A DNA stretch of 64,000 nucleotides from Escherichia phage vB_EcoM_Alf5. The stretch lies in sequence record KX377933; one strand, given 5' to 3'. The notes under the pieces were generated by a model. It had not been told where the DNA came from and ran no database searches. It worked only from the letters and a program-made list of their open reading frames with translations. How positions within the stretch are numbered: the first letter of the stretch is position 1; each line of letters starts with the position of its first letter. This document shows positions 3,207 through 4,599 of this stretch, one piece after another. A program made the translations under genes and the position numbers.

Positions 3207-3281
3207 GGGAGATTGACGGTAATTGGTAAACCTACCATCCTTAGAAGTTGGTGTTTGAGGGTTCGAATCCCTTGTCTCCTA
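3207..3281 (+). tRNA. tRNA with anticodon TAG (Leu-type anticodon, short variable arm)
   Basis: Acceptor GGGAGAT/GTCTCCT; anticodon stem CCATC/GTTGG (one mismatch), loop CTTAGAA; T-loop TTCGAAT; CCA follows. Confidence 0.5.
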
Positions 3282-3291
3282 CCAAATTAAT

Positions 3292-3364
3292 GCAGGTGTA
3301 GCAAAATGGTTATGCGGCTGACTCTTAATCAGTAAGACGACGGGTTCAATTCCCTCCACCTGTA
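3292..3364 (+). tRNA. tRNA-Lys (anticodon CTT)
   Basis: Acceptor GCAGGTG/CACCTGT; anticodon stem GCTGA/TCAGT, loop CTCTTAA; T-loop TTCAATT; CCA follows. Confidence 0.6.
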
Positions 3365-3372
3365 CCAAAAAT

Positions 3373-3445
3373 GGGGTCATAGTTTATATGGTTAAAATTC
3401 GAGTTTTGCAAACTTGGGAACTGAGTTCAATTCTCAGTGACTCCA
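3373..3445 (+). tRNA. tRNA-Ala (anticodon TGC)
   Basis: Acceptor GGGGTCA/TGACTCC with G3-U70 (Ala identity pair); anticodon loop TTTGCAA; T-arm CTGAG-TTCAATT-CTCAG; CCA follows. Confidence 0.75.
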
Positions 3446-3454
3446 CCAATTAGT

Positions 3455-3526
3455 GCATCCATAGTTTAAACGGGAAAATTACAGTCTTCCAAACTGAGGT
3501 TGAGGGTTCGATTCCCTCTGGATGCT
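3455..3526 (+). tRNA. tRNA-Gly (anticodon TCC)
   Basis: Perfect acceptor GCATCCA/TGGATGC; anticodon loop CTTCCAA; T-arm GAGGG-TTCGATT-CCCTC; CCA follows. Confidence 0.7.
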
Positions 3527-3536
3527 CCAAATTAAT

Positions 3537-3609
3537 GCTCCTATCGTATAATCGGCTATTACGGTTGCCTTGTAAGCAACTTATCAGGGTTCGAATCCTT
3601 GTGGGAGCA
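3537..3609 (+). tRNA. tRNA-Thr (anticodon TGT)
   Basis: Acceptor GCTCCTA/TGGGAGC; anticodon stem GTTGC/GCAAC, loop CTTGTAA; T-loop TTCGAAT; CCA follows. Confidence 0.7.
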
Positions 3610-3707
3610 CCAATTCAGAGGTCAAGTGAAAGACCGCTGGTGTCAACTGAAGACCGTAACAAATTCCACGGAGTTGAGTTAGCGGCACAACTTCAGACCT
3701 CTTTCAC

Positions 3708-3779
3708 ACTCGCTTAGTTTATATGGTAAAACATCACCCTTACAAGATGAAGAAAAAGGTTCAAGTCCTTTAGTGAGTA
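3708..3779 (+). tRNA. tRNA-Val (anticodon TAC)
   Basis: Acceptor ACTCGCT/AGTGAGT; anticodon loop CTTACAA; T-arm AAAGG-TTCAAGT-CCTTT; CCA follows. Confidence 0.6.
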
Positions 3780-3783
3780 CCAT

Positions 3784-3858
3784 GTTCCAGTATCCCAATT
3801 GGCAGAGGATGCAAGCTCAAACCTTGTATTAGTGACGGTTCGAATCCGTCTTGGAACA
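3784..3858 (+). tRNA. tRNA with anticodon CAA (Leu-type anticodon, short variable arm)
   Basis: Acceptor GTTCCAG/TTGGAAC; D-loop AATTGGCAG; anticodon stem GCAAG/CTTGT, loop CTCAAAC; T-arm GACGG-TTCGAAT-CCGTC; CCA follows. Confidence 0.5.
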
Positions 3859-3879
3859 CCAATTTAAAGAGGCTATTTA

Positions 3880-4437
3880 ATGAGATATTTGAAGTACGCT
3901 TCATGGATTTTCTTAGCTTTACTAGACCCAATTGCAGCAATCCTAGCAGTTATTTTAGCACCTTTCGTAGTTCCATTCTACAGTGAGAAGAAAGGACATC
4001 TACCTTTTGGATTCAGATGGATGGAGACATATGACAACCCAATTGATGGTGATGAAGGTCACGTTAAAAGATGGGCTAAGATTAGAAAGATTGGTAAGCT
4101 GGGTGTCTACATGCAGAGAGTCGGATGGCTCTGGAGAAACAAAGCTTATAACTTCTCTTACCATGTATTAGGAAGAGATGTAAAAGATGTTACTAAGTGG
4201 AAAGGTAATATCAACGTAAGTTCTGACCCCGAAGATAATCAGACAGGTTATCTCCTAATGTGGAACAACAATGCTTGGGGATTATTCGCTTTTATTCCGT
4301 CAATTAAAGTCTTTGGTAAACAGTTTTACTGGAGAATTTATGTTGGATGGAAACTAAAAAGTGTTGTCCCAGAAGAAAGAGCATTCTCAAGGGAAAGAGT
4401 TATGTTGGCATTCTTTATTCATCCACTGAGAAAGTAA
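3880..4437 (+). CDS. hypothetical membrane protein
   Basis: ATG 3880 after AGAGG; N-terminal hydrophobic helix (WIFLALLDPIAAILAVILAPFVV); sits between tRNA genes. Confidence 0.6.
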   Translation: MRYLKYASWIFLALLDPIAAILAVILAPFVVPFYSEKKGHLPFGFRWMETYDNPIDGDEGHVKRWAKIRKIGKLGVYMQRVGWLWRNKAYNFSYHVLGRDVKDVTKWKGNINVSSDPEDNQTGYLLMWNNNAWGLFAFIPSIKVFGKQFYWRIYVGWKLKSVVPEERAFSRERVMLAFFIHPLRK

Positions 4438-4445
4438 AGATTTAA

Positions 4446-4518
4446 AGGGGATTAGTTTACAAGGTTAAAACCTCGGTCTTTGAAATCGAAGAAGTTGGTT
4501 CAATTCCAACATCCCCCG
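4446..4518 (+). tRNA. tRNA-Gln (anticodon TTG)
   Basis: Acceptor AGGGGAT/ATCCCCC (unpaired 1-72); anticodon stem TCGGT/ATCGA, loop CTTTGAA; T-arm GTTGG-TTCAATT-CCAAC; CCA follows. Confidence 0.6.
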
Positions 4519-4523
4519 CCAAT

Positions 4524-4599
4524 GCTCCATTACTCCAATTGGCAGAGAGGCCAGACTTAAAATCTGTGTTATGTATCGGTTCGAATCCGATATGGAGTA
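4524..4599 (+). tRNA. tRNA with anticodon TAA (Leu-type anticodon, short variable arm)
   Basis: Acceptor GCTCCAT/ATGGAGT; D-loop AATTGGCAG; anticodon loop CTTAAAA; T-arm ATCGG-TTCGAAT-CCGAT; CCA follows. Confidence 0.5.

Follow-up and report, generated by a model that had tools for sequence, protein, structure and literature searches.

A long variable arm is taken as near-universal for bacterial tRNA-Leu, both by textbooks and in PMC6614811, but a type I architecture without this arm has precedents in mitochondria, in Streptomyces and in the records of T5-like phages. In Streptomyces coelicolor, a type I tRNA-Leu(CAA) with a 5-nt variable loop coexists with type II tRNA-Leu and is leucylated by a bacterial leucyl-tRNA synthetase (LeuRS), the S. 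coelicolor enzyme charging both types (Fan et al., 2019, PMC6614811). Human mitochondrial tRNA-Leu(UUR) also lacks the long arm, its identity resting on A73 and A14 (PMC9976931). Here we describe three tRNA-Leu genes of this kind, with anticodons UAG, CAA and UAA, in the tRNA array of Escherichia phage vB_EcoM_Alf5; they lie in a stretch of 64,000 nucleotides of sequence record KX377933 (hereafter the window), which is part of the phage genome. The genes as such are already known, being annotated as tRNA-Leu in hundreds of records. However, in the literature that we searched, no paper discusses the architecture of short-armed tRNA-Leu in phages, such tRNAs being mentioned in passing for one mycobacterial tRNA cluster (PMC6582537) and for cyanobacteria (PMC6933170); the dependence of coliphages and many other phages on type I tRNA-Leu is not pointed out there, nor is its bearing on the published claim that E. 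coli LeuRS (EcLeuRS) is a type-II-only enzyme. The three genes are truly devoid of the long extra arm while keeping the other hallmarks of leucine tRNAs, and we consider it likely that they encode functional type I leucine tRNAs, charged by the host LeuRS and decoding UUA, UUG and CUA.

All three genes are called by ARAGORN on the plus strand, each including an encoded CCA: tRNA-Leu(UAG) at 3207..3284 (78 nt), tRNA-Leu(CAA) at 3784..3861 (78 nt) and tRNA-Leu(UAA) at 4524..4602 (79 nt). The Rfam tRNA model (RF00005, gathering score 29 bits), run over a region of 6.6 kb, also recovers them above its gathering score, at 40.0 bits (E = 6e-06), 44.0 bits (4.5e-07) and 47.5 bits (5e-08), respectively; these are the lowest scores among the tRNAs of the array. 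Parsing of the sequences and alignments place the anticodons at 3242-3244 (UAG copy), 3818-3820 (CAA copy) and 4558-4560 (UAA copy), all three being of a Leu form (NAG or YAA), and the variable loops read TGTTT (5 nt, 3252-3256), ATTAGT (6 nt, 3828-3833) and GTTATGT (7 nt, 4568-4574). None of them is a variable arm of more than 10 nt with a stem, the hallmark of class II, and loops of 5-7 nt that each end in U48 fit the definition of type I tRNA-Leu in PMC6614811, a tRNA-Leu body whose short variable loop has 5 nt or more and contains nucleotide 48. ARAGORN finds no long-armed tRNA-Leu anywhere in the window, and long arms are present in the tRNA-Tyr (88 nt) and the two tRNA-Ser (90 and 93 nt) of the same array. 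A preliminary description of this DNA, made from hand-folded sequence, had already proposed the anticodons TAG, CAA and TAA and variable loops of 5-7 nt; ARAGORN returns the same anticodons and no long arm, and the gene ends given there (3281, 3858 and 4599) designate the same genes without their CCA. The reservation expressed there, that the hand fold might be off, is ruled out by ARAGORN and Rfam. Minimum free energy (MFE) folding yields a clean cloverleaf for the CAA copy only and not for the other two, with z-scores of -0.3 to -1.8, a result that is uninformative for tRNAs, in which a missed cloverleaf is common; ARAGORN, Rfam and covariation were relied on instead.

The CAA and UAA copies have the exact geometry of the tRNA-Leu D-arm, a 3-bp stem and an 11-nt loop as in host tRNA-Leu (TCC-CAATTGGCAGA-GGA and CTC-CAATTGGCAGA-GAG), with a loop CAAUUGGCAGA to be compared with RAAUYGGUAGA in the host. 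This signature, a 3-bp stem with the 11-nt loop NAAYYGGNANA, is found in only five of 32 tRNAs (24 from the window and 8 from the host), namely the CAA and UAA copies and the E. coli K-12 genes leuW (UAG), leuX (CAA) and leuZ (UAA), whose own loops read NAAYYGGNAGA. The UAG copy is less regular: its D-arm has one extra nucleotide and a weak stem in which only two or three pairs form, and its anticodon stem contains a U30.U40 mismatch. Aligned with leuW, leuX and leuZ, which are 85-87 nt long and carry the same anticodons, the phage tRNAs appear as tRNA-Leu bodies minus 8-10 nt of variable arm, the 13-15-nt stem-loop of the host being replaced by 5-7 nt. All three have A73, A14, A15 together with U48, G18G19, the D-loop motif GGYA.A and the T-loop UUCGAAU, and the core tertiary nucleotides U8-A14, A15-U48, G18G19, A20a and U54/U55/C56/A58 are present throughout; A73, A14, A15/U48, G18G19 and the T-loop are shared with the host genes. 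The UAA copy, in which the anticodon loop has A36A37A38, also has the G1.U72 of host leuZ. Departures from the host are A37 instead of G37 in the UAG copy and C38 instead of A38 in the CAA copy. Identity to leuW, leuX and leuZ is only 63-72%, but whole-sequence pairwise identity is useless for assigning isotype here, all comparisons giving 63-76%, and the D-arm signature and published isotype scores were used for this purpose. In Sf14, a Moogle-like phage, the counterparts of the three genes are ranked as Leu first by the tRNAscan-SE isotype models, with 67.4, 49.1 and 60.2 bits, although narrowly for the UAG counterpart (67.4 versus 65.7 for Ile2) (PMC12482277). An anticodon-shifted copy of another isotype was also considered and is ruled out by the Leu-specific D-arm and these Leu-first scores.

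Could the loss of the arm have changed the amino acid? In principle, a tRNA that loses a structural element defining its class might also change its identity, and the preliminary description had left the choice between unusual Leu isoacceptors and tRNAs charged with another amino acid. In the second case, UUA, UUG and CUA would be ambiguous or recoded during infection. The evidence supports the isoacceptors and makes the other option very improbable. The identity elements of E. coli LeuRS, as reviewed by Giege and Eriani (PMC9976931), are A73, the A15-U48 Levitt pair, G18G19, A20a and the tertiary pairs linking D-loop and T-loop, and every one of them is found in the three phage tRNAs; the D-arm of the CAA and UAA copies and the isotype scores of the Sf14 counterparts are likewise those of a tRNA-Leu body. 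The alanine route is closed, the 3-70 pairs being G-C, U-A and U-A, with G3:U70 in none of the copies, and the serine route is closed as well, the loops being short and position 73 being A and not G, so that seryl-tRNA synthetase (SerRS) would find neither its long arm nor its G73. Synthetases that read the anticodon would not accept UAG, CAA and UAA.

The proteins of the phage point in the same direction. When NrdA and NrdB are aligned with their E. coli counterparts, positions encoded by UUA, UUG or CUA face Leu in 38% of cases and one of L/I/V/M/F in 79% (n=42), against 36% and 66% for the other Leu codons (n=50). The three codons are thus as Leu-like and as hydrophobic as the rest and, judging from these alignments, appear to behave as Leu codons in conserved proteins; host tRNAs that read them as Leu are also present, which again speaks against recoding. 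Demand for such tRNAs is substantial. In 41 open reading frames (ORFs) of the window (39% G+C), the Leu codons are UUA (25.9%), UUG (13.5%), CUA (10.7%), CUU (28.6%), CUC (5.2%) and CUG (16.0%), whereas CUG makes up about 50% of leucine codons in E. coli. Since UUA, UUG and CUA add up to 50%, the three anticodons cover at least half of the phage Leu codons.

How such tRNAs would serve the phage can be proposed as follows. The three Leu tRNAs would be transcribed together with the rest of the array, they would be charged with leucine by the host LeuRS and, once charged, they would decode UUA, UUG and CUA and possibly more of the CUN codons, providing an A+T-rich phage with tRNAs for codons that it uses far more than its host. 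Expression, leucylation by the host enzyme and a benefit to the phage are what we infer. Charging must be by the host enzyme because the window encodes no LeuRS homologue (tblastn, best E = 6.5). Among the top LeuRS-like matches in a phage collection, nine lower Escherichia/Salmonella records being left out, none falls in a Felix-like record, and these top matches look to be mostly host DNA in phage records. That an arm-less substrate may suffice is suggested by the Giege and Eriani review, according to which E. coli LeuRS leucylates a minimal arm-less tRNA-Leu provided that A73 and the D/T-loop interactions are intact (PMC9976931). The engineered E. coli tRNA-Leu cited in that review (Larkin et al., 2002; Asahara et al., 1998) resemble the phage tRNAs in having a core that is leucylated without the arm, but they are artificial constructs assayed in vitro. 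A natural case comes from the T5-like phages: the short-armed tRNA-Leu(UAA) of phage 5 (tRNAL2) is recorded as an "effective amber suppressor" in E. coli once given a CUA anticodon (GenBank note, AJ604531). This suppression means that tRNAL2 works in E. coli translation, and activity after an anticodon change is to be expected of a tRNA whose synthetase ignores the anticodon.

Several observations weigh against host charging. Offered the type I tRNA-Leu(CAA) of S. coelicolor, the E. coli enzyme failed to charge it, although it charged the type II species at half activity, and the authors call EcLeuRS type-II-only and the Streptomyces enzyme the sole prokaryotic LeuRS that charges both types (PMC6614811). 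Arm-less tRNA-Leu are therefore not automatically EcLeuRS substrates. The suppressor note in AJ604531 is silent on the amino acid inserted. The UAG copy combines an irregular D-arm, a U.U mismatch, the weakest Rfam score and A37 where the host has G37, and the cloverleaf of two of the three tRNAs is missed by MFE folding, common as this is for tRNAs. A phage factor may also be encoded outside the window. The S. coelicolor negative need not extend to the phage tRNAs, however, because its substrate has C48 in place of the U48 called for by identity studies of EcLeuRS, its cognate enzyme ignores A73 and it comes from a distant phylum, whereas the phage tRNAs have U48 and match the E. coli identity set. 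The substrate is a chromosomal actinobacterial tRNA (PMC6614811), and given that EcLeuRS did not charge it, we regard it as a precedent for the architecture and not for enterobacterial charging. The mitochondrial precedent is also distant, animal mitochondrial tRNA-Leu having a loose organellar body, a dedicated mitochondrial LeuRS and no conserved bacterial D-loop.

The same negative result, together with the proposal that phage tRNAs counter tRNA-targeting defences (PMC10264068), would fit tRNAs that are made but are poor substrates or non-substrates of the host LeuRS and whose main role would lie elsewhere, for instance in regulation or, as decoys or sinks, in diverting nucleases or toxins that target tRNAs. 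We find this improbable. A decoy would have no need for the LeuRS identity set, and yet this set, including U48 and A73, is kept in about 97% of the more than 140 short-armed tRNA-Leu that we surveyed (see below); the anticodons follow the codon demand of the phage; amber suppression by a T5-like homologue is efficient in E. coli (AJ604531); and EcLeuRS charges the arm-less minimal tRNA-Leu, as stated in the review cited above (PMC9976931). Charging by the host LeuRS thus remains our preferred reading. If it takes place, the phage tRNAs would be natural substrates for defining what enterobacterial LeuRS requires, and compact Leu-tRNA scaffolds for suppressor or orthogonal-pair engineering could follow. 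If it does not, something unexpected happens in these phages. For half of the leucine codons of a classical group of Salmonella and E. coli phages, arm-less tRNA-Leu appear to be the only ones that the phage supplies.

The genes are well conserved among relatives. Alf5 is a Felix-O1-like phage: at 97-98.5% identity, the region matches Felix O1 and over 200 of its relatives among phages of Escherichia, Salmonella and Shigella (Felixounavirus, Ounavirinae), and the Felix O1 record (NC_005282) has the same array annotated, with the same three genes as tRNA-Leu of 78, 78 and 79 nt. In Mooglevirus, the same three Leu genes have 0, 0 and 1 differences, the UAG copy being identical, while the surrounding region is about 91% identical. 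In Kolesnikvirus, which comprises Erwinia and Salmonella phages, short-armed Leu(CAA), Leu(AAG) and Leu(UAA) are found, with stems that are wholly different in sequence and in which pairing is kept. Further away, in the family Demerecviridae, tRNAL1 of the T5-like Salmonella phage 5/BF23 (AJ604531) shares 84.6% identity with the UAG copy, and this phage also has a short-armed Leu(UAA) of 77 nt, tRNAL2. Both tRNAL1(UAG) and tRNAL2(UAA) are 77 nt long and share with the window genes the D-loop and a short variable loop, here of 5 nt, ending in U48, and tRNAL1 even shares the U30.U40 mismatch of the UAG copy; they differ in having a regular D-arm, and no CAA species accompanies them. Within the Vequintavirinae, PVP-SE1 and an Avunavirus each carry a short-armed Leu(UAG) of 77 nt, and the PVP-SE1 array has in addition a long-armed Leu(UAA) of 86 nt, that is, one tRNA-Leu of each type. 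The trait therefore recurs in four phage groups, Ounavirinae, Tequintavirus, Seunavirus and Avunavirus.

T5 itself had been a candidate carrier of the short form, wrongly: its tRNA-Leu(UAG) is 85 nt long with a long arm and lies directly after tRNA-Ala (locus L252, 7625-7709). In phage 5/BF23 the same slot is occupied by an unrelated-looking short-armed copy of 77 nt (locus L002, 9835-9911). This is an allelic replacement, in an array rich in HNH homing endonuclease genes, and because T5 has the long form and phage 5 the short one in the same slot, long and short designs replace each other in sister phages.

This distribution also bears on whether the genes could be decaying pseudogenes, relics of normal tRNA-Leu after deletion of the arm. 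Their Rfam scores, the lowest of the array, and the irregular D-arm of the UAG copy might be so explained, and the array does contain tRNA-like remnants that are degenerate, at 2185-2266 and at 2768-2848. Nevertheless, we regard decay as extremely improbable: the genes are identical or nearly so across genera while their flanks diverge, the trait is common to all three Leu genes and recurs in the four phage groups, and compensatory changes preserve pairing in all four helices even between very distant relatives.

This last point is best seen in a wider survey. IMG/VR was scanned with a pattern in which a Leu-type D-loop and a T-loop are separated by no more than a short arm would allow, and at least 81 short tRNA-Leu were recovered from at least 52 contigs of uncultured viruses. 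All six anticodons are represented, and the sequences, most of which are 55-75% identical to the window genes, form at least 76 clusters when grouped at 90% identity. When 56 diverged short-armed tRNA-Leu were aligned to a four-helix cloverleaf with a 3-bp D-stem and a short variable loop, 96.7% of the cells were paired and double compensatory changes were found at 20/20 pairs, with a covariation score of 1.03 as compared with 0.25 for shuffled alignments and 0.12-0.17 for slid partners. Among the matches listed, U48 is present in 80/81 and A73 in 79/81 of the viral short-armed tRNA-Leu, and in 58/59 and 56/59, respectively, of the bacterial ones. Of the conserved positions, only U8, the A after GGY, U48 and A73 are independent of the search pattern, which partly forces the invariance of A14, A15, G18G19, U33, A35 and the T-loop. 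The loss of the arm is specific to tRNA-Leu: among the matches listed, 39/40 tRNA-Ser and 20/20 tRNA-Tyr from the 51 viral loci with a short Leu have long arms, as would be expected if the arm is lost only where the synthetase can do without it, SerRS and tyrosyl-tRNA synthetase (TyrRS) needing it and LeuRS not. By a rough estimate, 13-20% of phage tRNA-Leu, or about one in six, are short-armed, among the matches listed with an AATTGG D-loop.

The same pattern, applied to one genome per bacterial species, found at least 60 short tRNA-Leu in at least 43 loci, which form two groups. The first lies within arrays of 12-35 tRNA genes (Nostoc, Acidobacteriota, Planctomycetota, Asanoa). Five arrays with 17-35 tRNAs within 8 kb (loci L149, L151, L155, L176 and L237, from Asanoa, Acidobacteriota, Nostoc, Thermoguttaceae and one other genome) carry two to four short-armed tRNA-Leu each, with differing anticodons, as in phage arrays. 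The second group is made up of genes that stand alone on the chromosomes of Actinobacteria (Nocardia, Mycobacterium, Rhodococcus, Gordonia, Pseudarthrobacter, Streptomyces), and the genes upstream of the Nocardia and Rhodococcus loci are conserved. Actinobacterial loci L134, L143, L147, L150, L180, L182 and others have mostly UAA, also CAA and UAG, with near-identical sequences. In this context, a paper on M. tuberculosis gives long-armed status only to tRNA-Leu-2, -3 and -5. The premise of the preliminary description, that bacterial and T4 tRNA-Leu are type II, thus stands as a general rule but has many exceptions, some known and others unrecognised, in phages, bacterial arrays and actinobacterial chromosomes, and the trait is neither private to the Alf5 phage nor recent.

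Why the arm would be lost is a separate matter. Compatible with charging by the host LeuRS, loss of the arm could be advantageous, by evading toxins or nucleases, of the host or of competitors, that grip it or by making the gene compact and its product faster to process. There is some ground for this: the toxin MenT3 grips the class II arm of tRNA-Ser, short-armed tRNA-Leu are concentrated in phages and horizontally moving tRNA arrays, and a given slot may hold the long version in one phage and the short one in a close relative. However, recognition of the tRNA-Leu arm by a toxin or nuclease is not known to us, the same architecture belongs to an apparently ordinary chromosomal gene in Actinobacteria, the arm is kept in about 80-87% of phage tRNA-Leu among the matches listed, and neutral loss of a dispensable element fits the data equally well, so that an advantage seems unlikely to us. 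A broader proposal would hold that short-armed tRNA-Leu are a distinct, ancient and widespread lineage, carried preferentially by phages and mobile arrays and fully competent with proteobacterial LeuRS, in which the loss of the arm was adaptive as a means of escape from host or rival factors that recognise class II arms. We are similarly doubtful of this proposal, which, if true, would contradict the view that the Streptomyces enzyme alone among prokaryotes charges both types.

The three genes belong to an array of 24 tRNAs called by ARAGORN on the plus strand (546..5797), among which lie small ORFs and one for an HNH endonuclease; all tRNAs of the array encode their own CCA. Two near-consensus sigma-70-like promoters (399-427 and 490-519, plus strand, 10-11/12 hexamer matches) are predicted directly upstream of the first tRNA and a third at 1952-1980 (plus strand); all are consensus matches only, the total number of such sites in the region not being above shuffled expectation. 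Downstream of the last tRNA (Cys, ending at 5797), a terminator-like hairpin followed by a T-run is found at 5960..5977 on the plus strand.

The two tRNA-like remnants of the array differ in what they preserve. The element at 2185-2266 (plus strand) resembles tRNA-Arg(UCU) in its acceptor stem of 7 bp, its anticodon stem-loop (CUUCUAA), its T-arm and its ACCA end, but a D-arm is missing and the variable region, about 23 nt long, contains a small hairpin; the element scores 31.7 bits with the Rfam tRNA model and is not called by ARAGORN. Mooglevirus, Kolesnikvirus and T5-like phages have a normal tRNA-Arg(UCU) of 75-77 nt instead. The adjoining ORF at 2281-2628 matches in position a Felix O1 gene annotated "HNH endonuclease", for which reason the element may be a rearranged or decaying gene. 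In the tRNA-like fold at 2768-2848 (plus strand), the acceptor stem is 6 bp long, a T-arm is present, and the 9-nt loop of the anticodon-type stem, CCUCCAAAA, includes CCA (Trp); the only Rfam match of this fold is a weak one, to the tRNA-Sec model (23 bits). No tRNA-Trp is called in the window, and one is present in the Kolesnikvirus relatives.

Repeated elements also occur between the tRNA genes. A spacer motif, CAGAAGACC(N3-4)YYCAGCAA, is found four times, at 715, 881, 1336 and 1422, each copy being followed 60-125 nt further on by GGTCTGGT (780, 938, ~1401 and 1547). The stretches concerned (707-795, 873-955, 1336-1412 and 1414-1560, with a lone T-arm-like fragment at 1480-1499) may act as signals for processing or give rise to small stable RNAs similar to ones annotated in the arrays of T5-like phages. 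Directly upstream of tRNA-Lys (1703), a 22-nt inverted repeat (1555-1576 and 1677-1698) has arms that are 95% complementary and 100 nt apart. In the database, a stretch of GU169904.1 (Staphylococcus phage SA1) is 98.6% identical to the tRNA region of the window, this record being probably chimeric or mislabelled. Finally, two ORFs inside the array, both on the plus strand, have matches only to families of the DUF type: the product of 3880-4437 to DUF7338 (E = 1e-62), with membrane protein or holin annotations in some relatives, and that of 4826-5623 to DUF7217 (E = 1e-86).

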